Counted from the stretch's first letter, positions 9,003-59,750 are shown. The stretch is DNA of 64,000 bases from an uncultured bacterium (GCA_937924555.1 CALDSN010000098.1:28976-92975); one strand, 5' to 3'. Numbers and translations: made by a program. The notes: a model not told the origin generated them from the sequence alone.

Positions 9003-9031
9003 AAAACTTATCATATATCAAGGATGAACGG

Positions 9032-13638: not shown

Positions 13639-13656
13639 GCTAATAAGTATATACAA

Positions 13657-13690
13657 AGAAAGGCGGAACCAAACGGCTCCGCCTTTTCTG
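13657..13690. terminator. Bidirectional intrinsic terminator
   Basis: AGAAAGGCGGAACC-aaac-GGCTCCGCCTTTTCT between convergent nifJ and rfbB. Confidence 0.8.
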
Positions 13691-13706
13691 TTTAAAGCTG
13701 TATATT

Positions 13707-14777
13707 TTAGCCCAGTCCCAGCCGTTCCTGGCGATAACTGTTGTCCTGGATGTGCTGCCACCACTCACGGTTCTCAAGATACCACTCCACAGTCTTGCGG
13801 ATGCCTTGGGTAAAGGAAACGCTTGCTTCCCAGCCCAAGTCATGCTTAATCTTGGAAGCATCAATGGCATAGCGTAGGTCGTGCCCCGGTCTATCCGCCA
13901 CATACTGTATCAGTTCACGGTAGCTGCCCAAGGTTGAGGAAGGCTGCAACTCGTCTAGGTGATCACAGATTTGATGCACGATTTGGATGTTCTGCATCTC
14001 GCAGTTACCGCCAATGTTGTAGGTTTCTCCGGCTTTACCGCGAGTAATTACCGCCTCTATGGCACGGCAATGATCGTCCACATACAGCCAATCGCGTACA
14101 TTAAGTCCCTTGCCATACACAGGCAGAGCTTTATGCGCCAGGCAGTTGATTATCATCAAAGGGATAAGCTTCTCAGGGAACTGGTATGCCCCATAGTTAT
14201 TACTGCAATTGGAGATGGATACCGGCAAGCCAAAAGTGCGATGCCAGGCACGCACCAAGTGGTCGGAACCTGCCTTGGAGGCAGAGTATGGTGAGGAAGG
14301 GTCATAGGGTGTGCTTTCCGTGAAGGCACCGCTAATGCCCAAAGAGCCGAACACCTCATCTGTTGATACATGATGGAAGCGAAAGCCCTGCTTGTCTGCT
14401 TCACTCAGGCTTCTATAATACTTCAGTGATGCTTCCAGCAGCGAGGCAGTGCCAACAAGATTGGTGTTTATGAACTGCATGGGAGCGTCGATGGAACGGT
14501 CAACGTGCGACTCCGCAGCAAAGTTGATGATTGTATCCGGCTGGAAGCTTTCCAGTAAAGCAGCTATTTGTGCCGTGTCGCATATATCCGCTTGGACAAA
14601 GAAATACCTGCTTTCACCATAGCGGGATTCAATATCACGCAAGCTTTCTCTGTTCCCGGCGTAGGTGAGTTTATCGATATTCAGCAACTTCCCGGAAAAG
14701 GCAGGATTGCCAAAAAGGAAGTGGATAAAGTTAGCCCCAATAAAGCCTGCACCACCCGTGAGGACTACATTTTGCAT
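13707..14777 (-). CDS. rfbB: dTDP-glucose 4,6-dehydratase
   Basis: TGGAGFIG, NFAAESHVDRSI, HVSTDEV, YSASK, DRPGHDLRY. Confidence 0.97.
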   Translation of the reverse strand: MQNVVLTGGAGFIGANFIHFLFGNPAFSGKLLNIDKLTYAGNRESLRDIESRYGESRYFFVQADICDTAQIAALLESFQPDTIINFAAESHVDRSIDAPMQFINTNLVGTASLLEASLKYYRSLSEADKQGFRFHHVSTDEVFGSLGISGAFTESTPYDPSSPYSASKAGSDHLVRAWHRTFGLPVSISNCSNNYGAYQFPEKLIPLMIINCLAHKALPVYGKGLNVRDWLYVDDHCRAIEAVITRGKAGETYNIGGNCEMQNIQIVHQICDHLDELQPSSTLGSYRELIQYVADRPGHDLRYAIDASKIKHDLGWEASVSFTQGIRKTVEWYLENREWWQHIQDNSYRQERLGLG

Positions 14778-14782
14778 GAAAC

Positions 14783-15631: not shown

Positions 15632-15641
15632 TGCGTTTTCC

Positions 15642-16406: not shown

Positions 16407-16432
16407 ATATGTCCTTATCTTTCTGTCTCAGT

Positions 16433-23327: not shown

Positions 23328-23402
23328 GCATAGTCAATGAACTTGTCCATCGGGTGGGGTAGTCTCCACCCGATGGAATGAAAACAATAAGGGGAAATAA
23401 GT

Positions 23403-28862: not shown

Positions 28863-28863
28863 G

Positions 28864-34997: not shown

Positions 34998-35744
34998 ATG
35001 GCGAGCAAAAGTGATGCTAAGTTTGCAGATATCCAAAGGGAAGTTGCAGCTTATTGCAGCGAACACGGCGACCCCGTATTGGTGGCGAAGTATAGCCGCT
35101 ATTTCAGAGAAGGCTATGATGCCTATGGGCTTAGCGAAGAGAAAGTGCATACACTTCGCGACAATATATCCTCCAAGTACAATCTAAACTGCAAGGAAAT
35201 TATCCGCTTGGGCGAACAGCTTTTACAACCGGGGAAGTATGAATATGGCACGGTGGCGATTCTCCTTCTGATGAAGCAGACCGCAGCCTACGATGCAGAT
35301 ACTCTGCAGGGAGTGAAAAGCTGGTTTGATTCAGGTGTTAACAATTGGGCTCACTCGGACATCCTGTGCTCGCGGGTAACTCCGGTGTTCCTGGAAAAGG
35401 GAATTGCCCCTTTGGAAAGCTTTGCCTCATGGCGAAAAGCTGAGAGCAGATGGACCAGACGTGCCGTGCCCGTAACCATGCTTTGCCTGCGTAAGACAGC
35501 AAATCCGCAGGAACTGCTCAGCTTCCTTAACCCGATGATGGACGATGCGGAAAGAGTGGTGCACCAAGGTTTGGGCTGGTTCCTTAGAGAGCTGTGGAAA
35601 TTACACCCGCAGCCTGTGGAAGACTTCCTGCTGCAACATAAGAACCATTGTGCCAGGCTAATTATCCAATACGCCACAGAAAAGATGACTTCGGAGCATA
35701 AACTCCGCTTTCGCAAAGATAAGATTAAGAAGGGATTGATATGA
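34998..35744 (+). CDS. DNA alkylation repair protein (AlkD-like HEAT)
   Basis: VNNWAHSD, WTRRAV, VHQGLGWFLRE, LIIQYATEK; RBS AAGGAG. Confidence 0.8.
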   Translation: MASKSDAKFADIQREVAAYCSEHGDPVLVAKYSRYFREGYDAYGLSEEKVHTLRDNISSKYNLNCKEIIRLGEQLLQPGKYEYGTVAILLLMKQTAAYDADTLQGVKSWFDSGVNNWAHSDILCSRVTPVFLEKGIAPLESFASWRKAESRWTRRAVPVTMLCLRKTANPQELLSFLNPMMDDAERVVHQGLGWFLRELWKLHPQPVEDFLLQHKNHCARLIIQYATEKMTSEHKLRFRKDKIKKGLI

Positions 35745-38476
35745 AACGCATATTTGTTATTTTGTTAATGCTGATAAGCCTAAGCTCGCTTGTTTATGGC
35801 TTGCAACTGGTAGTGCCATTTGAGGTCCCCGCTGAGGGATTTGATTCCATAACTTTAGCTAAGCTTGGCTATGGCAGCACGGTTAACCCCGGTAGTATGC
35901 AAATGCCGGTTAAAAGCATAAATGTGTTGCTGCCTCCGGGAGCTAAAGTGTTGGATTATACTATCACTTTAACAAGCCCCAAGCCTGTAATGGGATATGC
36001 GCCAGTGCGCAACAATGCCTTTAGTGACGGGGATAAGCTGCTCAGTAGGGCTAATGATGACCGCACACTTCCTGCATCTGTGTATCTTGGGATGCGAAAA
36101 TGGGGAGAGCTATGCTATGCAGCATTTAATGTTCTGCCGGCAACTTGGGACGGAGCTATGTGGCAATGGAGCCCTTCCTGCACTATAGATATCAGTTTCA
36201 GCCAAAGCAAAGCCACAGGCAAGATACCCTCCAGTTTTACTGATAACAGCTTCTTTGCCAACCCCGGCGCAATAAATAAATGGTACACGAAGGACACCCA
36301 GCGTAACTATGACATATTGGTGATTGGAACCCCCGAACTGTATGCCGCCATGTCAAGCTGGGTGAGCTTCCGCTTCAATCAGGGCTTGCAGGTAAGCTTC
36401 ACCGAGATTGCCACTGCCCTCAGCCAGGGAACGGGTACTTCTAATGCTGAGAAGCTGCGTAGCTACTTGCAAAGCCAGTATAGCAGCAATAACTTCTGCT
36501 ATCTGCTGCTCTTGGGAGATTATAACACCATCCCGGTTGCCTACCTTACTCCGGAACCGGATGGTTGGGACCAAGTACCTTCAGACTTCTTCTATGGAGA
36601 CCTCAGCAGCAATTGGGATAGCGATAATGACGGGCGATTGGGGGAATACTCCGGCGGGAACCTGAACCAAGACTATGAAGTGGACTTCACCCCTGAGGTG
36701 TTTGTGGGAAGGCTTTCCACCAATAGTCCTGCATTGATGGCAAACATAGCAGGCAGGATTGTTGCCTACGAGCAAAGCACAGAGCCATGGAAGCAGAAAA
36801 ACCTGCTGCCAGCGGCGTATCTGAACTATAATAACGAGCCGGAAGCAGGTTTGTCCGCCACGGACGGTGCGGACTTCATGGAATATGTTAGGGATACAGC
36901 CCTGGCGGGACAGCAGAACTTCAGCATGTATGAACAGCTTGGAGTGGTGCCTTCCTATCCGGGTGACCTTGCTCTCTCAGAGGAGAACTTCCGCGAGGTG
37001 CTGAATACCCAAAGCTGGGGGATGATAAACTGGAGCGCTCATGGCAGCGGGACATCCTCGGCACGTAAGATATGGATGGACGACATCAACGAGGATAATT
37101 TCCCTGATCAGGACGAGATGACATGGATGGGCTTGGTGGATAGAAGCAGCTTTGACAATCTGGATACCAACACAGGAACGGTCATCTTTGCCGCTTCCTG
37201 CTATAATGGGCTTATCGATGCTGATGAGCCTTGCTTGGCGGAATACGCCTTGCAAAAGAGAGCCGTGGGGGTTCTGGGTGCCACGCGCACGGGTTGGTAT
37301 AAGGTGGGTTGGCGCAACCCGGGATGGGGTGGGCTAAGCTCTTACAACTACCATTTCTTGGAGAACTTCCGCCAAACAGGGATGGATTTGGGCACTTCGC
37401 ATGCCTATACCAACCTGTTACATACTCGCTATTACCTCTTTGGAGATCCGCTGGATTCGGGAGGGATAATATGGCCTGAACTGCAGAACGTATATGCCTA
37501 CCTGCTGTTTGGTGATCCCTTGATTGGCTATACTCCCAACCCAATCCCTCCCCAAGGAGAAGTGTTGGTGTGGGAACCCACAGGACAGCAAGGCATTGCA
37601 GTGGTAAACGCCCTGCGTGAAACTCTCAACATGAATGTTATCTACACAGATAAGCTTATCCCGGATTATGATTATATCCATAACTTTGCTGCGGTGTTCT
37701 GTCTCTTGGGCTTAGGCGAGGATACTTACGAGCTTGAGCCTGATTCATTCGAGCATAGCCTGTTAAACAGCTATCTTGAGGAAGGGGGAAGCCTGTATCT
37801 GGAACGAGGCTCGATTCCCAATACCATCATCTCACCTCTCTGGGCTAAGCTTGGTGCAAGTTCCTTGCCAAATGCCGTAACTCCCATACAAAGCATCAGG
37901 CACCTTAGCTCCAATATGACATGGCAATATGATGCTACATCAACCCTTGCTCAGGCACTTACACCAGCATCTGACTCTGCTTTACCCTTGTTTGCCACAA
38001 ACAATATGGATCCCATCGATGCCTACCTCTCCATCTGGAACAGCAATGGTTTGTATCACAGTATTGCTTCATCCTTCTCGCTTGCAAGAGTGTTGGAGGG
38101 AGAAAATAGCCTTGCAGATATGCTGAGTATTGTGTGTGACACTTTGGGAATTAGCACGGGTAACCCATCTTCTGTGCAGGATGAAACTAATATCATGCCC
38201 ATCCGGAGGGTGAGTTCATATCCCAATCCCGGAAGGGGAACTGTGCACTTTGCTCTTAGTAACATCAAGGGAGTGCCCATTGAACTGAATATCTATAACA
38301 TCAAGGGGCAATTGGTGAGAGGCTTGGCTTCCCCTGCAGGTTCCTCCGATACAATCCGGTTACTATGGGATTGCCGTGATTCCGCCGGTAGAGCTTGTGG
38401 TAGTGGAATATACCTTTATCACGCAAGGGTTGGTGATATTAGTATTAGTGGTAAGCAAATCCTGCTAAAGCAATAG
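35741..38476 (+). CDS. Peptidase C25 (gingipain-like) with propeptide and T9SS-type C-terminal domain
   Basis: LLLGD, SDFFY, VFVGRL, catalytic WSAHG and SCYNG, YPNP...GIYLY. Confidence 0.88.
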   Translation: MKRIFVILLMLISLSSLVYGLQLVVPFEVPAEGFDSITLAKLGYGSTVNPGSMQMPVKSINVLLPPGAKVLDYTITLTSPKPVMGYAPVRNNAFSDGDKLLSRANDDRTLPASVYLGMRKWGELCYAAFNVLPATWDGAMWQWSPSCTIDISFSQSKATGKIPSSFTDNSFFANPGAINKWYTKDTQRNYDILVIGTPELYAAMSSWVSFRFNQGLQVSFTEIATALSQGTGTSNAEKLRSYLQSQYSSNNFCYLLLLGDYNTIPVAYLTPEPDGWDQVPSDFFYGDLSSNWDSDNDGRLGEYSGGNLNQDYEVDFTPEVFVGRLSTNSPALMANIAGRIVAYEQSTEPWKQKNLLPAAYLNYNNEPEAGLSATDGADFMEYVRDTALAGQQNFSMYEQLGVVPSYPGDLALSEENFREVLNTQSWGMINWSAHGSGTSSARKIWMDDINEDNFPDQDEMTWMGLVDRSSFDNLDTNTGTVIFAASCYNGLIDADEPCLAEYALQKRAVGVLGATRTGWYKVGWRNPGWGGLSSYNYHFLENFRQTGMDLGTSHAYTNLLHTRYYLFGDPLDSGGIIWPELQNVYAYLLFGDPLIGYTPNPIPPQGEVLVWEPTGQQGIAVVNALRETLNMNVIYTDKLIPDYDYIHNFAAVFCLLGLGEDTYELEPDSFEHSLLNSYLEEGGSLYLERGSIPNTIISPLWAKLGASSLPNAVTPIQSIRHLSSNMTWQYDATSTLAQALTPASDSALPLFATNNMDPIDAYLSIWNSNGLYHSIASSFSLARVLEGENSLADMLSIVCDTLGISTGNPSSVQDETNIMPIRRVSSYPNPGRGTVHFALSNIKGVPIELNIYNIKGQLVRGLASPAGSSDTIRLLWDCRDSAGRACGSGIYLYHARVGDISISGKQILLKQ

Positions 38477-38513: not shown

Positions 38514-41423
38514 TTAAGCTTCTCCCTCCAATGCTTCCTGAATCTTGTCAGAGAGTTCTTTCAGGGTGAAGGGTTTGGATATGAAGTGCACATCTGCATC
38601 CAATATACTCTGGTGAGCGATAACATTCGCAGTGTAGCCGGACATAAACAGGCTCTTAATCTTTGGGTGAATAGCAGTGATGTTCTTGGTTAAATCTCTG
38701 CCGTTCATTTCGGGCATTATCACATCCGTTATCAACAGCTTAATCTCTCCCACATAATCCTTAGCTATTTGAATGGCTTCTCTTGGGTTCCCGGCACAGA
38801 TGACTTCAAAGCCCATCTTCTCCACCATCCGCTTGGTTATGCGCATAATGGCAGGCTCATCTTCCACCAGCATCACAACACCGCTTCCCTGCAGCACTGT
38901 GCCATTGTGTTCAGAGGGTTTGGCTTCACCCGAGGCGTTGATGTAACGGGGGAAGTATATTCTAAAGGTGGAGCCTACTCCAGGCTCGCTGTACACTCCA
39001 ATAAAGCCGTTATTCTGCTTCACTATTCCGTAGATGGTGGATAAGCCCAGTCCTGTTCCTCTGCCCACTTCCTTGGTGGTAAAGAACGGCTCGAAGAGGC
39101 TTTCCAGCAGGTTTTTCTCAATTCCACAGCCATTGTCGCTGACCGACAGACACACAAACTCTCCGGGTAATACTCCGCTTTTACGGGCACAATCCACTTC
39201 ATTAATAGTTACTGCACTCGTTTCAATGCGTATTTCTCCCACATTACGGATGGCATCACGTGCATTTATACACAGATTAGTTAACACCTGGTCCAGTTGA
39301 GAGGGGTCAATCTTGATGTCCCACAGGTCTTCTCCGGGGAACCACAACAGATTAATATCCTCCCCAATAAGCCGTTCCAGCATCTTAAGCATGTTCTGCA
39401 AGGCGATATTCAGGTTCAGCACCTGAGGGGCAATGGTTTGCTTCCTGGCGAAGGCAAGAAGCTGCTTGGTGAGTTCCGAAGAGCGTTTACCTGCTTTGAT
39501 AATCTCATTCAGATCTTCATAGAGCGGGTTATCTTCGCCAATTTCCTCTGCCAAAAACATGGCATGTCCGATAATGATGCTGAGCATGTTATTAAAGTCA
39601 TGCGCTACTCCTCCGGCAAGCCGTCCCACAGATTCTATCTTTTGCGCTTGGCTAAGCTGTTCCTGTAACCTATCCTTTTCAGCTTCAGCTCTCTTACGCT
39701 CGGTGACATCCATGAAGATACATGCAAACTGCATCGGAGCAGGGCGGAAGGCCGTAACCTCGAAATACTTGTCCAATTCTCTTGCATAGCTCTCAAAATG
39801 CGCGGGTTCCCCGGTTAATGCCACCTTCCCATATTTTTCGACCCAGTGCTTCTCAATATCCGGTAACACATCCAATACTCTTTTACCGGCAATATGTTCA
39901 TTCCGTAACCCCGTAATGCGTTCAAAAGCCGGATTTACGGCGATAAATCTATAGTCTATCGGTTCGCCGGCTTCATTACAGATAATATCATGCAGAGCAA
40001 ATCCATCCAACATTTCGTTGAACAGGATTTGGTATTTGCTTTCTATCCTTCTCTGCTTCTCCAAAGCAATTGCCAAGCTAATCTTACTGTAGCTGAGATT
40101 GGATATCATTCCTGCAAGCTTACCATAGTATGCCATTATCGCTTCCACTTTCTGCTTATTCCACCGCGGAACTCTTCTTAGGGCTGCAATGTAATCTTCT
40201 TCGTTAAAACCGTATAATCTTGCTTGATTGCGAAATAGCTCTTCATCGACTACTTCATCATCATACATGAATTGCCCGAGGAATATGTTACCCACATGTT
40301 TCCCTCCTAACACGATGGGGGTTACTAAATCCCAGAGGTTGTTTTTACAGTGATATGCTTTAAAGGTACCCAGTTCCACACCCTTAGAGAGAACTACATC
40401 ACTTTCCACACAGTTAAGGCGGGTGGCAGGATTTACGCGGTGGAACTTAGTGCAGATATCTTGCCAGCCGACAGAAATAAGCACCTTACCTTCCACATCC
40501 AAAATTCCACATACGGCATTTGTTAATGTATGAAAATCAGTTAGTAGGGATTGAAGTGCATCCACATCCAGAATATGCTCCAGCTTTAGGTCGCTGAGGT
40601 CACCAGTGGGATCAGTTATGGCATTAAGCTTGTCGCGGACTGCCGCTTCGCTGTCTTTTAAAGCTTGTTCAGCCTCAATTTGCTTGGTGATGTCAATAAC
40701 CGTGGTAATGAAGTTTATAAAGTTTCCATCCTTATCCCGGTTGGCGGCAACGCTCATATCACCCCATATATAGCTGCCATTCTTGTGGACATACCGTTTC
40801 CTGAAGCGTACAGAATCCTTTTCTCCGCTTAGCAGGGGGCTAATCTCCCTCTCTACCATTTGGATATCTTCCGGGGGAGTTATCTCCTGCCAAGTGTGCG
40901 CAACAAGCTCTTTTTCCTCATAACCCAGCATAGCGCAAAAAGCAGGATTAACCCTTATCTCTCCGTTTGGTTGGGTGATGGATTTTCCCACATTAGAGCC
41001 ATCAAAGATCTTCTTGAACATCAGTTCGCTTGCTCGTAAGGCATCGTCCAAGGCGATTTTTTCGCTGATGTCTCTTGCTGAGGCGAAAAAATACTCGCCG
41101 TGGAGGGATGTACGCCATTCCATCCAATGAAAGCTGCCATTGCGTGCCCGTATCCTATTGTTGAAGTTGAGCACTTTTTCCCCGCTCCGTAAGCGTTGCA
41201 TTTCCTGCTTTGTGCTCTCCACATCATCGGGATGGACATAACTTAGGATATTCTGACCCAACATCTCTTCAATAGGGTAACCAAAGGTTTCTTCCCACTG
41301 AGCGTTAAGCTTGCAAAAGATACCATCTCCGGTGGTTATGCAAAGCAAGTCCAAAGAAGAATCAAAAAAACTGTTAACCAAGTCTAAACTGTTGTTCGGC
41401 ATACGGTTATTGCTTACATCCAT
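38514..41423 (-). CDS. Hybrid sensor histidine kinase: PAS-PAS-PocR-PAS-HisKA-HATPase-REC
   Basis: VHPDD PAS, WQDICTKFHR...CVESD PocR, AGGVAHDFNN, FEPFFTTK..GTGLGL, LLITDVIMP. Confidence 0.93.
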   Translation of the reverse strand: MDVSNNRMPNNSLDLVNSFFDSSLDLLCITTGDGIFCKLNAQWEETFGYPIEEMLGQNILSYVHPDDVESTKQEMQRLRSGEKVLNFNNRIRARNGSFHWMEWRTSLHGEYFFASARDISEKIALDDALRASELMFKKIFDGSNVGKSITQPNGEIRVNPAFCAMLGYEEKELVAHTWQEITPPEDIQMVEREISPLLSGEKDSVRFRKRYVHKNGSYIWGDMSVAANRDKDGNFINFITTVIDITKQIEAEQALKDSEAAVRDKLNAITDPTGDLSDLKLEHILDVDALQSLLTDFHTLTNAVCGILDVEGKVLISVGWQDICTKFHRVNPATRLNCVESDVVLSKGVELGTFKAYHCKNNLWDLVTPIVLGGKHVGNIFLGQFMYDDEVVDEELFRNQARLYGFNEEDYIAALRRVPRWNKQKVEAIMAYYGKLAGMISNLSYSKISLAIALEKQRRIESKYQILFNEMLDGFALHDIICNEAGEPIDYRFIAVNPAFERITGLRNEHIAGKRVLDVLPDIEKHWVEKYGKVALTGEPAHFESYARELDKYFEVTAFRPAPMQFACIFMDVTERKRAEAEKDRLQEQLSQAQKIESVGRLAGGVAHDFNNMLSIIIGHAMFLAEEIGEDNPLYEDLNEIIKAGKRSSELTKQLLAFARKQTIAPQVLNLNIALQNMLKMLERLIGEDINLLWFPGEDLWDIKIDPSQLDQVLTNLCINARDAIRNVGEIRIETSAVTINEVDCARKSGVLPGEFVCLSVSDNGCGIEKNLLESLFEPFFTTKEVGRGTGLGLSTIYGIVKQNNGFIGVYSEPGVGSTFRIYFPRYINASGEAKPSEHNGTVLQGSGVVMLVEDEPAIMRITKRMVEKMGFEVICAGNPREAIQIAKDYVGEIKLLITDVIMPEMNGRDLTKNITAIHPKIKSLFMSGYTANVIAHQSILDADVHFISKPFTLKELSDKIQEALEGEA

Positions 41424-41617
41424 CTAATCTTCCTAATCCACACATCTCATTAAATTGCTGTTGAAGTCCGCACATTGTCGGGATTTCCTCGCTTTGGCCT
41501 TCGCCAAGGCACACCTCACCTAAGCTTGCTTGATATACATACTAAACATATATCTTTCTGAGGCAACTACAATAATTTAGCTCCTCATCCTACTCGCTTG
41601 TTATAGATATCCTGTCT

Positions 41618-41694
41618 GGTATCAATACGGTATCATTACGGACTTATTGCGGACAAACAGCGCAATGAGTCCGTAATGATACCGTGTTTATCCC
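41618..41694. repeat. Palindromic repeat family C (GGTATCATTAC 11-mers)
   Basis: 25-bp stem 41627-41651/41661-41685, one G.T, 9-nt loop. Confidence 0.88.
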
Positions 41695-41749
41695 AAGAAG
41701 ACAGAGGGGAAATAACAAGAGCCAAATTGGGGAGGCTGAGGGAAGGAAA

Positions 41750-43435
41750 TCAGCGAGGTGTATATAAAAAAACCATATCCCCCTTGTTATACGAGGGATA
41801 GGATGCTACCAAGCGATAATCACGGGTGAACTTCACATTTAAGGCAAGTTCTAGTTTGTGGATGAACTCTTGTTTCAATTCTCCAGCGAGAGACAGCAAC
41901 ACTGGTTTTGAGGGGGTATCACTCTTTGCCAGAATGGCAAAATATAGGTCTTCCGTTTCCCGGGACCACAGCACTGTGCCGGGTTCGAAACTGCCAAGGG
42001 CATACACCAAACCGGGATGCTTATACACGGCGATTATCCCCTGTTGAGGGGTGAAGCCATAACGCGAAAGGATACCCTCTGTCTGGGTTAGGAACGCCCA
42101 CTTTGGGAAGTCATATTTAATGCCCTTATAGGCGTTATTCTGCATGTATAATGGTTGAGAACGGTATGGATGCTGCACATATTGAAACAAGCCGAAAAAC
42201 AGCACATATAGCATGATGTACGCTGCATAGCGGATAGCTTTGGCGGGATAGAATAAACCCAGCAGCAAGCTGAACCCGCCAAGCAGCAGTGAATAGTAGT
42301 ATTTGGCACCCCAATTGAGCGGGTTGGACGAACCCAAGGCACCCAGATAGGGAAGATAGAGCAGCATACCAATAAGGATTATATAGAGGTAATTGTCTCG
42401 CAGGAAACTGGGAACTGCCTTTGCTGTGGTGCTAAGATGCAAGCTGGGGGGAAGTAGCAAATAACCGATTGAGAGGTACACATAGAACAACAGGAACCCG
42501 GAGAGCAGCATCTCACCCTGCAGATGGGAGTATAAGCCGGTGGCGGTTACATAGAGCAGCATCCCCAGGGCTGCCAAGGATGCCGTTAGCTTCATGCCTT
42601 TGTTTCCGGTGAGGAGGGTGATGCGTGCCAGCAGCAGCACAACGAGAGCTTGCAACATGGCGTATAGGTTCAGTTTGGCAATATCCATTAAAGATTTGAC
42701 GAGGAGCTTGGTGTCGTAGATGATATACTTGCTCAGATAGTGGTAGAAATTGCCATAATAGGCTATCATGCCGGGTTGGATAAGCAGATTGAGCAAGGTG
42801 GCGGTGCCAAGCCATGCCAAGATGAAGGCAAGTAAGCTCCTTAGCTTATGTTGTTTGGAACATAGAAGGACGACGCTGCCGAGTAGCAATCCACCCAAGG
42901 CGGTGGGGAGTTTAACCGCCAAGATGAAGGCAAGCGGGATGGCGGAAATAGCTGAGAACAGGGTATGGTATCTTTCCTTACCTGCAGTAGCCAAGAGCAT
43001 GGATGCGGCAAAGAGGGTTAGGAGAAACTGGTTTAAGCTGTTGTAGGAAAGCTCGGAAGGAGAGCCGGCATAGGAGGCGATGAATCCTGAAAAAGCCGCA
43101 AGAAAGATAAAAGGGAAGGATATCGCTTTACTCCGCCTATAGCTAAGCACCAGATATATGCTGCTGGCAAGGTAAGTTGTGGCGAGGAGATTTATCAGCA
43201 ACCCAAGAAAACGCAGGGGTATAAGTCGGCGCATGGCTGTGGGAAGGAGGGAGCGGAGGAGGATATGCTCATACATATGCCCGCCGAACTCCACAGGTTG
43301 GGCATCCTGATAACGCAGCACATAATAGCCTGCATCACTGAAGTCAAAGGCTTTGTCAAAGCCCCAGATGATGGTGCCCAGTGAGAAGAGGACAAGCAAA
43401 ATGCCGATGATGGTGTGAAGCGGTTGCTTAGCCAA
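41750..43435 (-). CDS. Polytopic membrane protein, probable GT-C glycosyltransferase (GtrC-like)
   Basis: TM1 followed by acidic loop FDFSDAGYY; ~12 TM; periplasmic C-terminus; follows gtrA/GT2. Confidence 0.65.
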   Translation of the reverse strand: MAKQPLHTIIGILLVLFSLGTIIWGFDKAFDFSDAGYYVLRYQDAQPVEFGGHMYEHILLRSLLPTAMRRLIPLRFLGLLINLLATTYLASSIYLVLSYRRSKAISFPFIFLAAFSGFIASYAGSPSELSYNSLNQFLLTLFAASMLLATAGKERYHTLFSAISAIPLAFILAVKLPTALGGLLLGSVVLLCSKQHKLRSLLAFILAWLGTATLLNLLIQPGMIAYYGNFYHYLSKYIIYDTKLLVKSLMDIAKLNLYAMLQALVVLLLARITLLTGNKGMKLTASLAALGMLLYVTATGLYSHLQGEMLLSGFLLFYVYLSIGYLLLPPSLHLSTTAKAVPSFLRDNYLYIILIGMLLYLPYLGALGSSNPLNWGAKYYYSLLLGGFSLLLGLFYPAKAIRYAAYIMLYVLFFGLFQYVQHPYRSQPLYMQNNAYKGIKYDFPKWAFLTQTEGILSRYGFTPQQGIIAVYKHPGLVYALGSFEPGTVLWSRETEDLYFAILAKSDTPSKPVLLSLAGELKQEFIHKLELALNVKFTRDYRLVASYPSYNKGDMVFLYTPR

Positions 43436-43445
43436 GCAGCGAACC

Positions 43446-44387
43446 CTATTTGTCTTTGCGGATAATATAGCCGGGGCGGTTCTTTACCTCGTCGAAGATG
43501 CGCAGTAGATACTGTGCCAACACGCTGATGGAAAGGAGGATAAGTCCGCAGAAGAAGGACATGATGATGAGGGTGGTAGTCCAACCGGGAACACGGAAAC
43601 CGCCAAGTTGGTCTTCCCCCATCAGCTTGAGGATGATGGAGATAACTATCACCACCAAAGAAAGCACAAAGGAACCACCGCCCACAAAGGAGATTAGTTT
43701 GATGGGGAAATCTGAGGAGGCATAGAAAGTATCCTTGAACAGTCGAAGCTTCTTTTTGAAGGTCCAGCGGGATTTATGTCCTTTAGTGCTGGGGCGTTCA
43801 TAGGGTAAGTAAAGAGGATCGAAGCCGAGGCGCATCACCTCGATTAATGCGGAGGTGTTTATGGGGTGGATGCGCTGGTTCAGGATGTCGGCAACTTCTC
43901 TATCCACAGCGAAGATATCGGCACCAAGAGGAGGGAAACTGATGTCGGAGAGCTTATTCATAAGGAGGTAGTAGCTGCGGGCAAAAAGCTCGTTAAAGAT
44001 TCCGTCGTTGCGTTTGCTGCGGAAGGGGATAATCACCTGTGCGCCTTTCTGCCACTCCCGGTATATCTGCACATAAACTTCCAGAGGGGTTTGCCAGTCG
44101 TCCGGCATCATGCTCACCAGATCCCCTTTTGCCACAGATAACCCGGCAAAGATGGCGTAGTGAGAGCTGTAGTTGCGGCTGAGGCGGTATGCCTGCACCT
44201 TGGGGGATGACGCTTCAAGGGTCTTGGCGATGTTGTAGGAGTCATCGGTGGAGCCGTCATCGATAATGATGAATTCGAACTCTATGCCTTCGGCTTGGAA
44301 ACCGGAAGCAAGCTTGTGATACACCTGCGGGATGCGGTTGCCACTGTGGTATGACAACAGAATGAGAGAGAACAAGCCTGTTCTCAT
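43446..44387 (-). CDS. GT2 polyprenol-phosphate glycosyltransferase (GtrB/ArnC-like)
   Basis: IIDDGSTD, RLSRNYS, two C-terminal TMs, YLLRIFDEVKNRPGYII; ATGA overlap with gtrA. Confidence 0.92.
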   Translation of the reverse strand: MRTGLFSLILLSYHSGNRIPQVYHKLASGFQAEGIEFEFIIIDDGSTDDSYNIAKTLEASSPKVQAYRLSRNYSSHYAIFAGLSVAKGDLVSMMPDDWQTPLEVYVQIYREWQKGAQVIIPFRSKRNDGIFNELFARSYYLLMNKLSDISFPPLGADIFAVDREVADILNQRIHPINTSALIEVMRLGFDPLYLPYERPSTKGHKSRWTFKKKLRLFKDTFYASSDFPIKLISFVGGGSFVLSLVVIVISIILKLMGEDQLGGFRVPGWTTTLIIMSFFCGLILLSISVLAQYLLRIFDEVKNRPGYIIRKDK

Positions 44388-44776
44388 TGCTTTCCTCCTT
44401 GGGGGGAAAATACGATGCGCGACCAATGGTAGTTATAGGCTAAAGTGAAGGGAATAACCATGTAAGAAAGCAGCCAGTTCGGGAAAGGCAATAACACCCG
44501 GAATACATATAACATTCCCATGCCCAGGAGCATCCCCGAAAGATACACGGCGAAGTATTGCAGCATTTGCTTGGAGCTGTGACGGCTGCTGAAGGTGAAA
44601 ATGCGGTTAAGCGTATAGGAAAGCAGAATGGTGGTGATGTAGGTAAGCATGTAGGTAAGCTGCAAGGGTGTGTGATATAGCTCCAAACAAACATATAGGA
44701 TAAGCATGGAGAGGAGGGTTACCACCACTCCCACTCCGGAAAAGCGGATGAAGTCTCTGACACTAAAGTCCCGCAT
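44384..44776 (-). CDS. GtrA-family flippase
   Basis: FIRFSGVG, four TMs, [20 protein letters not shown]. Confidence 0.88.
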
Positions 44777-45890
44777 ATTGCTCCAGTGTGGATACAATGT
44801 GTTGCAATTCTTCTGTGGCAAGATATGGATTCATAGGTAAGCTGAGGCAGTGTTGGGCAATCTCCTCGGCAATGGGGAAGGAGCAGTGAGACATTTCTTG
44901 GTAGGCTTCCTGCTTGTGGGGAGGAATGGGGTAGTGAATCATGGTGCTTACCCCGGCTTGCTGTAAGTGAGATTCCAGGGCTATACGGTTCTGCGTTTGG
45001 ATAACAAATTGATGCCAACAGGGAATAAGCTCTTCTGCGGCAGGAGAGACAGAGCGAAGCTTGGTATAGGGTAAGATTATCTCGGGATTGTTCACTCCCA
45101 GATATGCATTAGCTATATTGTGACGCAACAGGTTGTGGGCATCCAGATGCGGGAGTTTAACCCGAAGGATGGCTGCTTGAAGCTCATCCAAACGGCAATT
45201 GTAACCTTTGTAAAGGTTGTGATACTTGCGGCTGGAACCGTAGTTTGCCAACATGCGCAGTTTAGTAGCAAGCTCATCGTCATTGGTTGTAATAGCACCC
45301 CCATCGCCATATGCTCCCAGGTTTTTACCGGGGTAAAAGCTGAAGGCCGCAGCATCACCCCAAGCCCCGCACTTGATACCGTTGTATGATGCACCATGTG
45401 CTTGAGCTGCATCTTCCAGAACCTTTAAATTATATTGCGAGGCAAGCTTGTTGATAGGCTTCATATCAGCAGGCATACCGTATAAATGAACGGGGATGAT
45501 GGCTTTGCTGCGTGGGGTTATAGCTTGTTCAATACGTTTGGGATCAAGGTTGTAAGTAAGCACGTCTGGTTCAACGGGGATGGGGGTAGCTCCGCAGTAG
45601 CTTACGGCTAACCAAGTGGCAATATAGGTGTTGGAGGGGACAAGAACCTCATCTCCTGCACCAATGCCCCATGCTGTAAGCGCTAAAAACAAAGCATCAA
45701 GTCCATTGCTGACCCCTATGCAGTGCTTTACCCCGATGTATGCTGCAAACTCCTGCTCGAAAGCAGCCACTTCCTCGCCCAGAATATACCAACCCTTAGC
45801 CATCACTTTGGCTATGGCTGCGTCAATCTCCTGCTTCAGCTCACGATAGCTGTTGCCAATGTCGTAGAAGGGGATATCATGCTTTTGCAT
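44763..45890 (-). CDS. fdtB: dTDP-3-amino-3,6-dideoxyhexose aminotransferase (FdtB/QdtB, DegT family)
   Basis: [36 protein letters not shown]. Confidence 0.9.
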
Positions 45891-46278
45891 AGCGGAGATA
45901 CTCGTTATAGTCTCTGATGTAGTCACCTTCGTCAAAGTACTCTGAACAAAGAACCATCAATACTGCTCCCGGGCAGAACTCGCATATATCCACCCACAAA
46001 CCGGGAGCAATGGTAGCAAGATACATGGGGGTATCGAGGGTCAGTTCCTGTGTGCTATGCCCATCACTGATTCGCAACCTGCACGAACCATTCAGACAGA
46101 TAAAACTCTGGTTCAGTTCTTTATGAGCGTGTCCTCCACGATTAAAGCAGCCATCATTTCCCCAGATGTAGAACACTCGCTTAATTATGAAGGGTAAGTC
46201 CTTCTCACCTTCCACAACAGAGAGGTTACCCCGGGCATCGAACATGGTGCTTATTGGCTTAAGCTCTATGTTCATCAT
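45877..46278 (-). CDS. fdtA: dTDP-4-keto-6-deoxyhexose 3,4-ketoisomerase (FdtA/QdtA cupin)
   Basis: [30 protein letters not shown]. Confidence 0.92.
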
Positions 46279-46826
46279 AAGGCATATCCGTGATATTTGT
46301 CAATAAGGTAGGCAGTGACGGTACTTCTAATATCGTCAGTTCCGGGATGCTTTCTTGATGTACCTGGGTGGTAAATCAGCTCTATCTCACCAGTGGGTCC
46401 TTCTGCTCTTCCTACGACAACCCACCCCAGTTTTGCATGCAAACTACGTATGGCAGTATTACTCGCCAATTGGGATGCTGCCAATGGCTTTCCGGCAAGA
46501 TGCATATAATCATGCATCATTTCTGTACCATATCCTTTGCCCTGGTATTCACCGCTTAAGGCTATGGTATGAGTAGTGAAACTTCCTCTATCTGTAAGAG
46601 TAACAAATCCAATCGTAGTACCCGGTTCATCAATAGTCTCGAATAGGTACGCACGCATTTGATGCTTATTTGTCTTCCACCAATCTACCTGATCCTTTAA
46701 GTTGCGATAGGGCAAGTCTATTGTCGCTAGCTTTTCCAGATTTTCGTTATAGATTATGCGCATGCTGTCCAAGTGCTTCAATGTCCTAACTCTAACTCTT
46801 TTTAACTGAATCTGACTTTTAAGCAT
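46275..46826 (-). CDS. GNAT acyltransferase (putative sugar N-acyltransferase)
   Basis: EYQGKGYG motif A, N.AIRSLHAKLGW; start 46826 overlaps crotonase stop. Confidence 0.75.
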   Translation of the reverse strand: MLKSQIQLKRVRVRTLKHLDSMRIIYNENLEKLATIDLPYRNLKDQVDWWKTNKHQMRAYLFETIDEPGTTIGFVTLTDRGSFTTHTIALSGEYQGKGYGTEMMHDYMHLAGKPLAASQLASNTAIRSLHAKLGWVVVGRAEGPTGEIELIYHPGTSRKHPGTDDIRSTVTAYLIDKYHGYAL

Positions 46827-47550
46827 CCAATACCCCTCTACCCACAGAGTTCTGCACCATTGACACAACCATGGCATATTCGGGATCATCGGCTTGGGGC
46901 ATATTATATCCACCATGTCCCTTGAAATGCTGCTTGTAAAGCCGATAATTATGGTTCCCACTGTTTAGTTTTGCACACAACTCCTGCAAGCGAGTTAACA
47001 AGTTTACCTCGCATAATTCATCCACCAATTCCATAGCTGCTGCTTGCATTGGGTTGATGAACTCACCCATCAGAAGCATTCTAGCGCTGTGTAATCCTGC
47101 TTTGGCTATGATCTCACGCATCAATCCGGGAAGGCTTATACCTTTGGGATATTCAGGGAAACCAATCTTGATTTTTTCGTTGGCATCAATTAAACGATAG
47201 TCTGTGGCTAAAGCAAGTACAGCCCCGCTTCCCACAGCATGACCATTGATTGCGGAGATAATCAACTTAGAACTACGGAGGACTTTATAGAGCAAAATAT
47301 CCAGCAGATACAGAGTGCGGATTGCGCTCTCTTGTTCCAATTTTGCCATAGCTTCAAGGTTCATTCCGGTGCAAAAAGCACGCTCCGACCCCGTGAAGCA
47401 GATTATATCCACTTTAGGGTCACTATCATACTTATCAAAGGCTGTTGCTAGTTCAACAATAATCTCTTGAGTCAGTGAATTCTTTTGTTCAGATCTCAAA
47501 GTTAGTAAAACAGAGTTATCGGTTATGTAGCTGACAAATACATTATCCAT
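46819..47550 (-). CDS. Crotonase-fold (enoyl-CoA hydratase/isomerase) protein
   Basis: NSLT.E, AFCTGMNL, AINGHAVGSG..LALATDYR, GFPE, GLVDEL-like motif. Confidence 0.88.
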   Translation of the reverse strand: MDNVFVSYITDNSVLLTLRSEQKNSLTQEIIVELATAFDKYDSDPKVDIICFTGSERAFCTGMNLEAMAKLEQESAIRTLYLLDILLYKVLRSSKLIISAINGHAVGSGAVLALATDYRLIDANEKIKIGFPEYPKGISLPGLMREIIAKAGLHSARMLLMGEFINPMQAAAMELVDELCEVNLLTRLQELCAKLNSGNHNYRLYKQHFKGHGGYNMPQADDPEYAMVVSMVQNSVGRGVLDA

Positions 47551-47563
47551 GGTTTCTCCCGCT

Positions 47564-48421
47564 TTACACCAAGCTTTCCAGATACTCGCCATATCCGCTT
47601 TTTCTTATTGGAGCTGCGATTCTTAGCAATTGCTCTTTGCTGATAAAACCTTTCCGATAAGCTATCTCTTCGATGCAGCCTATCTTAAAGCCCTGTCTTT
47701 GTTCTATCACCGAGATGAACTGTGATGCCTGCAACAAGGACTCAAATGTCCCCGTATCCAGCCAGGCATAGCCCCTACCAAACACCAGCACATTAAGCTT
47801 ATTCATCTCCAGATATACTTTGTTCACATCCGTGATTTCATATTCACCTCGGGCAGATGGTTGTATCCTATGGGCAATCTCCACCACACTGTTATCGTAG
47901 AAGTATAATCCCGGCACGGCATAGGTGGATTTCGGCTCGCTGGGTTTTTCTTCCAGGCTAAGCACCTTTCCGCAGGAAGCGAACTCCACCACTCCATAAC
48001 GCTGGGGGTCAACCACGGGATAAGCAGTGATGATGGCTCCATCGGGCTTAGTGCACTCTGCCAGCCTGCTTTGGATATCCGCTCCGTAAAAGATGTTATC
48101 TCCCAGGATAAGGCATACGCTATCTCCGCCAATGAAATCTGCACCAAGCACAAAAGCCTGTGCCAAACCGTTGGGAACTTCCTGCGCCACATAGCTGAAG
48201 CACATCCCAAGTTGGCTACCATCACCCAATAATTTTATGAAACTTTCTTGTTCGGCTGGAGTGGTGATTATCAACACTTCCCTTATGCCAGCAAGCATTA
48301 GCACGGAGAGGGGGTAATATATCATCGGCTTGTCATAAACAGGCATAAGCTGCTTACTGACGGCAATGGTCAAGGGGTGCAATCTGGTGCCGGAACCTCC
48401 GGCGAGGATGATACCTTTCAT
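47564..48421 (-). CDS. rfbA: Glucose-1-phosphate thymidylyltransferase
   Basis: [49 protein letters not shown]. Confidence 0.97.
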
Positions 48422-48663
48422 TGTTCCTTACAGGACTTTCAGCTTTTTCCACCGCTAAAAGCCATCTATTATCCTTATAATTATCTTGATATTGCCTTTG
48501 TGACGGGAGTCCCCGTAGCTGTCAATTCATTTCTTGTTTGAAGGAGCAGGTAGCATGCGATTTGCATGATGAAGCAGCGTAGCTTTCCTTATTTTCTCTC
48601 TTGACGAGGATCAAGCTTTTTGATGAGTGTGCCACAAAAATATAAGTCATCAAGGAGTTCACC

Positions 48664-49158
48664 ATGGATGCTATCATTAGACTTGCTACAGATGTGGACA
48701 AGGAATCCGTGATTGGTATTCTAAACCACTATATCCAAAACAGCATGGCGGCATATCCACAACATCCAATGCCCCTGCAAGCATGGGAACCGATGCTTGC
48801 TATGTGTCGTGACAACAATCTCTGGGTGGCAGAAATCCCCGGAGAAGGGGTTGTAGGCTTTGCCATGCTAAAGTGGTATATGACCAAGGATAGCTTTGCG
48901 CACACCGCCGAAACAGGCTATTTCATCCACCCCGCTCACACGGGTAAAGGCTTGGGCAAGTTGCTTCTCACTGCATTGGAAGATGCCGCCAAAAAGATGG
49001 GTGTTACAATGCTGGTTGCCAATATCTCCTCGTTGAACCCCGAAAGTCTTGCCTTTCACAAGAGAACAGGATTTGTTGAATGCGGAACTATCCCGGCAGT
49101 GGGTGAGAAGAAAGGTAGCAAGTTCGACATCGTGTGGGTGTATAAGGCTATCGCATAG
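48664..49158 (+). CDS. GNAT N-acetyltransferase (phosphinothricin/MddA-like)
   Basis: YFIHPAHTGKGLG, NPESLAFHKRTGF..CG. Confidence 0.88.
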   Translation: MDAIIRLATDVDKESVIGILNHYIQNSMAAYPQHPMPLQAWEPMLAMCRDNNLWVAEIPGEGVVGFAMLKWYMTKDSFAHTAETGYFIHPAHTGKGLGKLLLTALEDAAKKMGVTMLVANISSLNPESLAFHKRTGFVECGTIPAVGEKKGSKFDIVWVYKAIA

Positions 49159-49182
49159 TCTAAAACAAGCTTCTTCCTTGCT

Positions 49183-49254
49183 ATCATTACATGATCATTG
49201 CATAATCATTGCATAAGAAACATGCAATGATTAGGTAATGAGCATGTAATTCAA
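49183..49254. repeat. Palindromic repeat family A, copy 2
   Basis: Three 11-mers per arm; between convergent genes. Confidence 0.88.
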
Positions 49255-49279
49255 ATGAGAGGATAAGAACATAGGAGCG

Positions 49280-50470
49280 TTAGCCCATAGGATGTTGGGT
49301 GTCTATATTCTGTACTCTAATGATGAAATAGAGCATCCCGGCAAAGCCAAAAGCAGAGGCAGAGAAAAGGTTTATCGCCGGGTTGTAGTTCCACAGCAAG
49401 GCTCCCCCAAAGGCTGCCACCGATACCACCACATCGCGGATAAGGTAGTATCTGCCAAAGGTGCTTGCCTTGGCACCTTCAGGGGCAAGCGAGAGTATGA
49501 GGGATTTGCGGGAAGGCTCGCCGAATTCTTTTAAGCCTCTAATGATAAACGCAATTATCAGAGCAGGAAAACTGCGCGAGAAATAGAGCACCAAAGGGAA
49601 GATGGCAAAGTTGAAGAAAGTGATAGCTACATAAGGCTTACGGCTGCTTTTATCGGCAAGATATGCCACGGGGATATACACCAGCATCGCCGTTAGCATC
49701 TCCACCGTGGTTAACACGCCGAATTGAAAAGCGCTCAGGTTGCGATTGTTCATCACCCACACCACCACAAAGGCATAGGGTATCTGCTCGCAGAAGCGGA
49801 TCAAGATATCTGATACCAATAGATTCTTGAGATTGCGATTGAAGCTATGTTTAATACCCTTGACGTTCTTGCTGTTATGGGGAGAGCTTTTATCCGAAAT
49901 GTAACGTTGTTGCACCACAAGGGCTACCAACGCAAAGAAAATTGCGGCTAAGAAGGCATATCGCACTCCCTGCAACCTGCCGAAGTGAACGATGAAGAAT
50001 CCCCCGATTAGGGGACCCAACGCCATAGGAACACGGCGAATAAGGGAATGCAGGGTGATGCCCATGGTCTGTTTATCCTTGGGCAACACTGCCGAAACAA
50101 GCTCCATCGTTGCAGGCAGGGAAAGCGATGTCCAGGATAAAAAGAACACAGAGCCTAGCAATACCGCATACCAGCTTGGGACAAGCACCACAATAAGGTA
50201 GCCAAAGATAGCCAGAAAGTTGAAGCAGAGTAGTGATTTCTTGTAACCGATTCTTGTGGCAAGCCAGCCACCGGGGTATGAATACAGAGCTGAAAGCAGG
50301 TTGTCCATGCCGTTCAGTAAGCCGATTCCTATTGTTGAACCGCCCAAGGCAAGGAGATAGATGGGTAGGAAACGCTCTGCCATCTTTTCGCCCAAACCTA
50401 CCAGCACCGCCATAATAAGCATAGCAGCCATGCTGGGTCTCAAGCCCAGGAAATCAACCACTTTCTTCAT
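49280..50470 (-). CDS. MFS transporter
   Basis: 12 TM; GWLATRIGYKK and YLADKSSRK motif-A-like repeats. Confidence 0.9.
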   Translation of the reverse strand: MKKVVDFLGLRPSMAAMLIMAVLVGLGEKMAERFLPIYLLALGGSTIGIGLLNGMDNLLSALYSYPGGWLATRIGYKKSLLCFNFLAIFGYLIVVLVPSWYAVLLGSVFFLSWTSLSLPATMELVSAVLPKDKQTMGITLHSLIRRVPMALGPLIGGFFIVHFGRLQGVRYAFLAAIFFALVALVVQQRYISDKSSPHNSKNVKGIKHSFNRNLKNLLVSDILIRFCEQIPYAFVVVWVMNNRNLSAFQFGVLTTVEMLTAMLVYIPVAYLADKSSRKPYVAITFFNFAIFPLVLYFSRSFPALIIAFIIRGLKEFGEPSRKSLILSLAPEGAKASTFGRYYLIRDVVVSVAAFGGALLWNYNPAINLFSASAFGFAGMLYFIIRVQNIDTQHPMG

Positions 50471-59477: not shown

Positions 59478-59553
59478 TGGCATCCCGTAGGGGAATCGAA
59501 CCCCTGTTGCGTGACTGAGAATCACGAGTCCTAGGCCACTAGACGAACGGGAC
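59478..59553 (-). tRNA. tRNA-Glu(CTC)
   Basis: Cloverleaf; anticodon arm CGTGA-TTCTCAG-TCACG; GGTTCGATTCC; encoded CCA. Confidence 0.96.
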
Positions 59554-59594
59554 GAATAACAAGCGGTTTTCATAAAATGGCAAAACCAAAAAAC

Positions 59595-59669
59595 TGGCGA
59601 CCCCTAGGGGAATCGAACCCCTCTTGCAAGAATGAAAATCTTGAGTCCTGACCGATAGACGAAGGGGTC
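59595..59669 (-). tRNA. tRNA-Glu(TTC)
   Basis: Anticodon arm CAAGA-TTTTCAT-TCTTG; T-loop; encoded CCA. Confidence 0.96.
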
Positions 59670-59675
59670 GCAAAC

Positions 59676-59750
59676 TGGTGATCCAGGGCAGGCTCGAACT
59701 GCCGACTCTCTGCTTAAAAGGCAGATACTCTACCACTGAGTTACTGGACC
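59676..59750 (-). tRNA. tRNA-Lys(TTT)
   Basis: Anticodon arm TCTGC-CTTTTAA-GCAGA; GTTCGAG; encoded CCA. Confidence 0.96.

Follow-up and report, generated by a model that had tools for sequence, protein, structure and literature searches.

What would a bacterium make from a gene cluster in which the enzymes for a dTDP-linked amino sugar stand beside a crotonase, an acyltransferase and three putative glycosylation proteins, and where in the cell would the product go? This question is raised by eight genes at positions 41750-48421 of a 64,000-nucleotide stretch of DNA from an uncultured bacterium (GCA_937924555.1 CALDSN010000098.1:28976-92975), which at its full length we call the window. A first-pass annotation, made from the sequence alone, had proposed that a crotonase supplies a dedicated acyl-CoA, that an acyltransferase of the GNAT family attaches the acyl group to a 3-amino sugar, and that a Gtr-like lipid-linked pathway transfers this sugar to lipopolysaccharide (LPS) or secreted proteins. 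Our results suggest that this outline was largely right. We favor a model in which the operon directs three-component, lipid-carrier-dependent surface glycosylation with an N-acylated 3-amino-3,6-dideoxyhexose, and from sequence matches and predicted structures we put the probability of this model at about 0.68. The operon is a new combination of known parts, not a new kind of system.

The eight-gene operon and its sugar-nucleotide genes

ORF (open reading frame) listing and translation place all eight genes on the minus strand, co-oriented and mostly overlapping, just as they were first described, and Pfam and NCBIfam models assign seven of the eight to families, the exception being a membrane protein of 561 amino acids (aa; Table 1). 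Judged by homologue lengths and junction sequences, several mechanical ORF starts were set too far upstream. The crotonase ORF as listed (46819-47592) likely starts at Met15 (47550), and the GNAT ORF opening at GTG 46961 is overlong, its homologues all being 183 aa. The listed ORFs for the aminotransferase (44763-45935), gtrA (44384-44821) and the GT2 protein (43446-44426) likely start at 45890, 44776 and 44387, respectively. With these revisions the junctions from rfbA onward are a gap of 13 nt, overlaps of 8, 4, 14, 14 and 4 nt, and a gap of 10 nt, which is an operon-like layout. A promoter and terminator consensus scan of 41300-49300 gave counts not above those of shuffled sequence.

Because the same gene order recurs in at least six independent Cloacimonadota contigs (L001/L002, L003, L006/L007, L008, L010/L014 and L015, at 47-93% amino-acid identity), the eight-gene operon is real and conserved and not a chance arrangement. 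Its distribution is narrow. When 5.8 billion proteins were searched with a word index, the GNAT fell into only 8 clusters, the crotonase into 11 and the 561-aa protein also into 11. Across 185,579 species represented by one genome each, the GNAT was present in four metagenome-assembled genomes (MAGs), all Candidatus Cloacimonas/Cloacimonadota, and the same scan returned no cultured carrier of the full eight-gene system. The cargo genes of type IX secretion system (T9SS) type, the C25 peptidase and the DUF4837 protein of the window fit an origin in the FCB group.

Table 1. Genes of the operon, in order of transcription, and the unlinked rfbB gene.
Gene or product	Position	Strand	Basis or remark
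rfbA/rmlA, glucose-1-phosphate thymidylyltransferase	47564..48421	-	TIGR01207; first gene of operon
Crotonase-superfamily protein, 243 aa from Met15	46819..47550	-	ECH_1
GNAT acyltransferase (predicted), 183 aa	46275..46826	-	Pfam GNAT models
FdtA/QdtA-type dTDP-4-keto-6-deoxyglucose 3,4-ketoisomerase	45877..46278	-	PF05523; PDB 2pa7
FdtB/QdtB-type pyridoxal-phosphate-dependent 3-aminotransferase	44763..45890	-	DegT family; PDB 3frk
GtrA-family small membrane protein, candidate flippase for lipid-linked sugar	44384..44776	-	PF04138
GtrB/ArnC-type GT2, polyprenyl-phosphate glycosyltransferase	43446..44387	-	PDB 5ekp, ArnC
561-aa integral membrane protein, predicted GT-C fold transferase	41750..43435	-	AlphaFold2 model and Foldseek
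rfbB, unlinked; would supply the second step of the pathway	13707..14777	-	TIGR01181

The genes for a dTDP-3-amino-3,6-dideoxyhexose, as recognized in the first-pass annotation, are borne out by the model and structure matches. RfbA scores 454 bits against TIGR01207 (cut-off 361) and is 86-93% identical across related loci. The rfbB gene previously noted at 13.7 kb, about 28 kb away from the operon, is confirmed by TIGR01181 (477 bits; cut-off 365); no second rfbB was found in the window, and the gene lies directly beside parB, parA and gidB (13707-17074, minus strand). Neither rmlC (rfbC) nor rmlD (rfbD) was found among the scanned window ORFs of at least 150 aa, again in line with the earlier reading. 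RfbA and the unlinked RfbB would together yield dTDP-4-keto-6-deoxyglucose.

The FdtA-like protein (PF05523, E = 1.4e-42) finds its best PDB match in Aneurinibacillus thermoaerophilus FdtA (2pa7, E = 3e-35), followed by QdtA (E = 3e-30), and it keeps the catalytic His-x-His pair (GHAH), with RGGHAHK aligned to RGFHAHK of 2pa7. The aminotransferase belongs to the DegT family (E = 3.9e-114) and best matches QdtB (3frk, E = 2.8e-121), then DesV (2oga) and WlaRG (5u1z). Since the isomerase matches FdtA/QdtA and the aminotransferase matches the 3-aminotransferase QdtB, the predicted product of the pair is a dTDP-3-amino-3,6-dideoxyhexose, either Fuc3N or Qui3N. As to the C4 configuration, the isomerase matches FdtA slightly better than QdtA, and the aminotransferase matches QdtB best.

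The putative acyl-supply module

The second gene of the operon encodes a crotonase-superfamily protein (ECH_1, E = 1.4e-30, 107 bits) that matches more than 120 PDB crotonases at E < 1e-5 and has the crotonase fold with its oxyanion-hole motifs. Aligned with rat enoyl-CoA hydratase (1ey3), it has Val at the position of E144 (GSGAVLA vs GGGCELA) and keeps the equivalent of E164 (GFPEY vs GQPEI). The E144 position is Val, Leu or Phe throughout the module members of Cloacimonadota and Bacteroidales, and Glu133 (the E164 equivalent), His104 of the NGH(A/S) motif and the oxyanion-hole region are invariant in family alignments. Because the first catalytic Glu is gone in every member, the protein reads as a one-Glu type and not as a canonical enoyl-CoA hydratase, and the hydratase analogy to the anthrose operon of Bacillus anthracis drawn by the first-pass annotation is weak, as only one of the two catalytic Glu residues is kept. 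Single-Glu mitochondrial delta3,delta2-enoyl-CoA isomerases are among the PDB matches (1xx4, 1sg4), and isomerases of the FabM type are another single-Glu example. The crotonase may isomerise, dehydrate inefficiently or do something else. We also considered an MMCD-type decarboxylase; compared by eye with the MMCD motif, the protein appears to have Met at the His66 equivalent. That the crotonase is functional is argued by its strict retention beside the GNAT, in every locus and across two phyla, and by a dN/dS of about 0.3 relative to the sibling allele, which indicates purifying selection.

The GNAT matches the Pfam models Acetyltransf_1, Acetyltransf_3 and Acetyltransf_7, and its AlphaFold2 model (pLDDT 88) has a standard GNAT fold, with phosphinothricin acetyltransferase and SpeG as the nearest structures in Foldseek. 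A comparison with the 3-hydroxybutanoyltransferase FdhC, made in the first-pass annotation, is not supported: neither the single-sequence search (E <= 1) nor the profile search (E <= 10) gave any FdhC chain, and FdhC was not within the top 50 Foldseek matches. On these sequence, profile and structure searches, the protein appears to be an independent GNAT lineage and not a member of the FdhC family. In these searches nothing linked it to FdhC other than the shared GNAT fold. The gene is always found beside fdtA, its dN/dS of 0.13-0.17 indicates purifying selection, and the window operon has no other N-acyltransferase. From this invariant fdtA/fdtB adjacency, its standing as sole acyltransferase of the window operon and the selection on it, we predict that the GNAT is the N-acyltransferase of the dTDP-3-amino sugar.

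Linkage of crotonase and GNAT to fdt genes in other genomes, a question left by the first-pass annotation, was found in more than 20 loci in two phyla. The three refuting conditions that could be put to the test, this key one among them, came out in favor of the first-pass annotation. That the two genes form a unit with fdt therefore stands, but the unit normally has four genes, two of which had been missed. Most Cloacimonadota relatives carry two extra genes between rfbA and the crotonase gene: a FabH-like KASIII (TIGR00747, 329 bits, above cut-off) and an SDR that scores best against the models for acetoacetyl-CoA reductase and FabG. In the window and in L008 this slot is empty, and in L003, from a Cloacimonas MAG, it holds (at 8789-9280) a 163-aa FdtC-type left-handed beta-helix (LbH) enzyme, with crotonase and GNAT still kept. 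The LbH enzyme closely resembles dTDP-3-amino-sugar N-acetyltransferases of known structure (PDB 7s43, E = 1e-56; 4mzu, WxcM-like), and we conjecture that in L003 the dTDP-3-amino-sugar pool is split between two acyl forms.

A metagenome scan turned up eleven more contigs whose GNATs are less closely related (36-44% identity); where long enough, these contigs have the order fdtA-fdtA'-GNAT-KASIII-SDR-crotonase-fdtB. Two of them (L019 and L026) carry the acyl module inside ordinary Wzx/glycosyltransferase polysaccharide loci that have no GtrA or GT-C gene. Exact-sequence look-up traced distant module proteins to a termite-gut metagenome, to a MAG of Odoribacter splanchnicus and to Parabacteroides goldsteinii DSM 19448 (GNAT WP_046146736.1, crotonase WP_046146733.1). 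In L006, a JGI metagenome contig, the operon is followed downstream (12447-16514) by a Dlt-like set, consisting of an AMP-binding enzyme, a GNAT-like protein, a PP-binding carrier and an MBOAT protein, which suggests further acylation of a surface polymer.

In our model, the GNAT would N-acylate the 3-amino group with a short-chain acyl-CoA prepared by the one-Glu crotonase, the group transferred probably being a C4 unit (crotonyl, 3-hydroxybutyryl or butenoyl type). In most relatives the precursor of this acyl group would be supplied by the FabH-like KASIII and the FabG/PhaB-like reductase. With neither KASIII nor SDR and with another GNAT allele, the window strain probably takes its acyl-CoA from central metabolism, and the acyl group that it attaches may differ as well.

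The state of the window operon can be compared directly with that of a very close relative, represented by contigs L032 and L013. The rfbA DNA is 99.4% identical to that of L032 up to position 47552, and dS between the two organisms is only 0.022 for rfbA, 0.012 for fdtA and 0.039 for fdtB. At the 47552 breakpoint, L032 carries the KASIII and SDR genes, both of which the window lacks. Sliding identity against L013 revealed two replaced patches, one at 47561-47426 (the crotonase N-terminus; about 55% identity) and one at 46885-46346 (the crotonase C-terminus and nearly the whole GNAT; 52-67%), and the DNA between and around them is 92-100% identical. Replacement thus extends to the first ~45 and last ~20 codons of the crotonase gene and to most of the GNAT gene. 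A simple deletion of KASIII and SDR is ruled out by these mosaic flanks. The GNAT is a divergent allele (dS 1.5-2.1 against the sibling allele) that groups with L031 in a subclade of its own, marked by changes from TP to TH, PLAGSQL to PLAASQL and RHMN to R(S/N)LH in motifs that are conserved in all other members, including those of Bacteroidales. From the lost acyl-supply genes and the change of GNAT allele we infer a change of acyl group between close strains, which would amount to diversification of the surface glycan.

Transfer machinery, acceptor and competing explanations

The last three genes would encode the transfer machinery. The GtrA protein is clear (PF04138, E = 2.7e-17, 63.5 bits; cut-off 26.1). 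The GT2 protein, first read as GtrB-type, aligns over its full length with Synechocystis GtrB (sll0501; 5ekp, E = 1.9e-30) and with ArnC (E = 1e-25), which upholds that reading; its best NCBIfam models are PgfS and ArnC, and its C-terminal segments are hydrophobic. It would load the sugar onto undecaprenyl phosphate, and GtrA would help the lipid-linked sugar across the membrane.

The 561-aa protein has no match in Pfam, NCBIfam or the PDB sequences. Its AlphaFold2 model, built with 11 homologues (pLDDT 83.6, pTM 0.86), has about 13 transmembrane helices followed by an alpha/beta C-terminal soluble domain. When this model was searched against the PDB with Foldseek, every high-probability match was a GT-C enzyme (probability 1.0, TM 0.41-0.46), with ArnT (5f15) the best (E = 1.9e-4) and yeast and canine STT3, PglB, EmbA/B/C and AftA among the others; transporters and G-protein-coupled receptors score a TM of only about 0.1. 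A Wzy- or WaaL-type identity was considered and rejected, neither being among the structural matches. The protein is thus predicted to have a GT-C fold, as the first-pass annotation had supposed, a link that comes from the predicted structure and from one distant relative's near-threshold Pfam match: ten sampled family members have no Pfam GT-C assignment, and one of them reaches 25.3 bits for PMT_2 (cut-off 26.1). GT-C enzymes use an acidic motif in the first outer loop. In this family the loop after the first helix carries the motif WGFDKAFDF(S/T)DAGYY, in which D34, K28, R41 and Y42 are invariant and D31 nearly so.

The family is not small, as a full HMMER search returned 1171 representatives with a limit of E <= 1e-3 and still 556 with one of E <= 1e-10. 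For P0017, which is 35% identical to the 561-aa protein, the GT-C gene is accompanied by gtrA, a GT2 gene and genes for two SDR sugar enzymes. P0018 and P0019 come from Arn-like amino-sugar clusters (L033 and L034, respectively), each with a GT2 and a DegT aminotransferase. L033 adds hexapeptide acyltransferases, an ATP-grasp enzyme and a Polysacc_deac_1 deacetylase, whereas L034 adds an aminotransferase/ATP-grasp fusion, methyltransferases and a pair of small proteins, of which one is EamA-like. Because all three sit with a GT2 and sugar-modifying genes, the family appears consistently to be the third component of lipid-linked, mostly amino-sugar, pathways. One further member (P0113) is fused to a SASA domain of the sialate-O-acetylesterase type.

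Once outside the cytoplasm, the sugar would be passed by the predicted GT-C enzyme to a surface glycan, most likely the LPS O-chain or a capsular-type polysaccharide, since polysaccharide genes (Wzx, GT4 enzymes and epimerases, with the Dlt-like set in L006) adjoin the operon in L003, L006 and L008. Our search of the literature on Cloacimonadota LPS turned up nothing specific.

Several points weigh against this model. We know of no GtrB-type enzyme with a biochemically established dTDP-sugar donor. The GT-C call comes from a predicted model whose TM scores are moderate (0.41-0.46) and whose E-values are no better than 2e-4. In the crotonase the first hydratase Glu is missing. The operon flanks in the window itself hold no polysaccharide genes, the neighbors here and in L001 being a PocR/PAS hybrid histidine kinase and a C25 peptidase. 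Finally, L003 has both an FdtC-type acetyltransferase and the GNAT, which leaves three possibilities for the GNAT there: redundancy, a second product or another substrate.

One alternative is that the acceptor is a protein, with a PMT- or PglB-like GT-C enzyme placing a single acylamino sugar on secreted or T9SS-sorted surface proteins. The presence of STT3 and PglB among the top structural matches would fit this idea, as would the match of the GT2 to PgfS, a model from a protein-glycosylation system, and the wealth of T9SS cargo genes in the window, where a C25 peptidase lies 3 kb off and is syntenic in L001. However, that synteny is confined to the closest relative, the neighbors in L003, L006 and L008 are polysaccharide genes, and Foldseek matches at a TM of about 0.4 cannot tell one acceptor class from another. 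We consider a protein acceptor unlikely.

It is also improbable that the pathway works in the manner of the Arn system, where the N-formyl group handled by ArnA, ArnC and ArnD offers a parallel: the N-acyl group would be a transient handle that is removed on the lipid carrier, leaving the GT-C enzyme to decorate lipid A or the core with a cationic, free-amine sugar. The ranking of ArnT as best structural match of the 561-aa protein and the similarity of the GT2 to ArnC are what such a pathway would predict, and distant GT-C relatives do occur with a GT2, a DegT enzyme and an ArnD-like Polysacc_deac_1 protein or a small EamA-like pair reminiscent of ArnE/F. Yet a deacylase domain (ArnD, Polysacc_deac_1) is absent from the eight genes and found near those distant relatives only, and the operon has a GtrA protein instead of an ArnE/F pair. 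An elaborate, strain-variable acyl module would also be pointless if the acyl group were discarded, and the same module serves ordinary Wzx-type polysaccharide loci.

That the GNAT merely N-acetylates the sugar, giving Fuc3NAc or Qui3NAc, with the crotonase unrelated or only structural in role, would suit the acetyltransferases nearest to the GNAT in structure, the missing catalytic Glu and the lack of KASIII or SDR for a special acyl-CoA in the window, but it is hard to credit given a crotonase under purifying selection with invariant key residues beside the GNAT in every locus of two phyla, a KASIII and a ketoreductase in most loci that make no sense for acetyl transfer, and a separate, dedicated N-acetyltransferase in L003. 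The model of lipid-carrier-dependent transfer of a sugar that keeps its acyl group, most likely to a surface polysaccharide, is the one we compare with known systems below.

Relation to known systems and implications

Three-component periplasmic glycosylation is an established mechanism (PMC11127046). The Gtr systems of Shigella and Salmonella (GtrA/GtrB/GtrC; Mann & Whitfield 2016; PMC11127046) likewise encode together GtrA, a GtrB-like GT2 and a GT-C transferase, and likewise add a single sugar. They use UDP-glucose from the general pool, whereas the sugar here would be a dTDP-derived N-acyl 3-amino-3,6-dideoxyhexose made by the operon itself; moreover, the GT-C protein comes from a family without a Pfam model and the host is a member of the Cloacimonadota. 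In Xanthomonas campestris, wxc region 3 (wxcK-wxcO) adds a Fuc3NAc side branch to the rhamnan O-antigen by a "distinct mechanism" (PMC8042644, PMC12573098, PMC13133917), and by published description its genes for an Fdt-type aminotransferase and isomerase are similarly clustered with those for a glycosyltransferase and membrane proteins. There, however, the acyl group is acetyl, added by the LbH domain of the bifunctional WxcM, in place of a GNAT and crotonase with or without KASIII and SDR. The ArnA-ArnT pathway also leads from an N-acylated amino sugar nucleotide via an ArnC-like GT2 and undecaprenyl phosphate to a GT-C enzyme, and ArnT is the best structural match here; our operon differs in having no deacylase and no ArnE/F pair, in using a dTDP-hexose and not a UDP-pentose, and probably in retaining the acyl group.

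For the acyl module, the closest parallels are looser. FdhC and QdhC are GNAT 3-hydroxybutanoyltransferases of E. coli O103, Salmonella O55 and Acinetobacter (PMC4869667, citing Liu et al. 2010). Our GNAT shares with them a gene position beside fdtA/fdtB and a predicted N-acylation of dTDP-Fuc3N or dTDP-Qui3N; unlike them, it has a dedicated crotonase, usually with KASIII and ketoreductase, and no sequence relation to them was found. The anthrose operon of B. anthracis (antABCD; PMC6947953) resembles ours in encoding a crotonase-family enzyme with amino-sugar genes. The present locus differs from it in having a GNAT, a 3-amino sugar, a Gtr-like route and a crotonase without one hydratase Glu. 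Dong et al. (2008, 2010) reportedly assigned the roles of the anthrose enzymes, among which the crotonase-family enzyme would provide the acyl-CoA donor. AntD belongs to the left-handed beta-helix acyltransferases and works on a 4-amino sugar, and cytoplasmic glycosyltransferases add the anthrose. The anthrose and FdhC comparisons are functional analogies only, since in each case a feature that defines the family is missing here. A crotonase and a GNAT also work together in fungal siderophore synthesis, where SidH (a crotonase) makes an enoyl-CoA and SidF (a GNAT transacylase) passes the acyl group on to an amine. The PDB matches of our crotonase include SidH (7oeq), which covers the longest stretch of the query; the acceptor there is N5-hydroxyornithine in another pathway, and this too is an analogy only.

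These comparisons also bear on novelty. The first-pass annotation knew of no description of anthrose-type acyl supply coupled to GtrABC-type transfer. A literature search for fdt genes together with an enoyl-CoA hydratase found no relevant paper; the combination of an Fdt sugar with a Gtr-like route has genetic precedent in wxcK-wxcO. What appears new is the module of GNAT and one-Glu crotonase, with or without KASIII and SDR, for which we found no paper, its coupling to a Gtr-like route, and the GT-C family without a model.

The window has several other features. Directly downstream of the operon lie a gene for a 969-aa PocR/PAS hybrid histidine kinase (38514-41423, minus strand) and one for a 911-aa Peptidase_C25 protein (35741-38476, plus strand) that is possibly PorU-like and matches no NCBIfam model; the same synteny occurs only in the closest relative, L001. 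On the other side, 48664-49158 (plus strand) encodes, in divergent orientation to the operon, a GNAT of the phosphinothricin/arsinothricin N-acetyltransferase type. Its counterpart adjoins the operon in L001 (77% identity), and in L003 (68% identity) lies about 2 kb upstream of rfbA, past two other genes. A stretch of low G+C content (0.40-0.44) at 20000-25760 holds two large genes (21144-23327 and 23403-25760) whose products end in FlgD_ig and Por_Secre_tail domains and are thus T9SS cargo; a third such cargo gene, its product also ending in a sorting domain, is at 5237-6232 (minus strand). Genes at 27160-31363 (plus strand) encode a GldA/GldF/GldG-like ABC transporter set (ABC_tran, ABC2_membrane, ABC_transp_aux) and then a DUF4340 protein, and three tRNA genes (Glu-CTC, Glu-TTC and Lys-TTT) are at 59478-59750 (minus strand).

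If our model is true, three-component periplasmic glycosylation extends to a dTDP-derived, N-acylated 3-amino-6-deoxy sugar provided by its own operon, and a GT-C family of more than 1000 representatives, so far without a Pfam model, appears tied to amino-sugar pathways. A broader idea, which we offer tentatively and regard as less likely than not, is that GNAT, one-Glu crotonase, KASIII and ketoreductase form a portable module, undescribed until now, for decorating Fuc3N or Qui3N with an unusual short acyl group, unsaturated or hydroxylated (crotonyl or 3-butenoyl, for instance), that in Cloacimonadota this module is tied to a new amino-sugar-specific GT-C family, and that strains exchange GNAT alleles and genes for acyl supply and thereby vary a surface epitope. 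The acyl-supply module also occurs in cultured human-gut Bacteroidales (P. goldsteinii and O. splanchnicus), where it is testable and may shape capsule or LPS antigenicity. The cassette swap between close relatives would be a clean natural example of surface glycan chemistry diversifying at the strain level.

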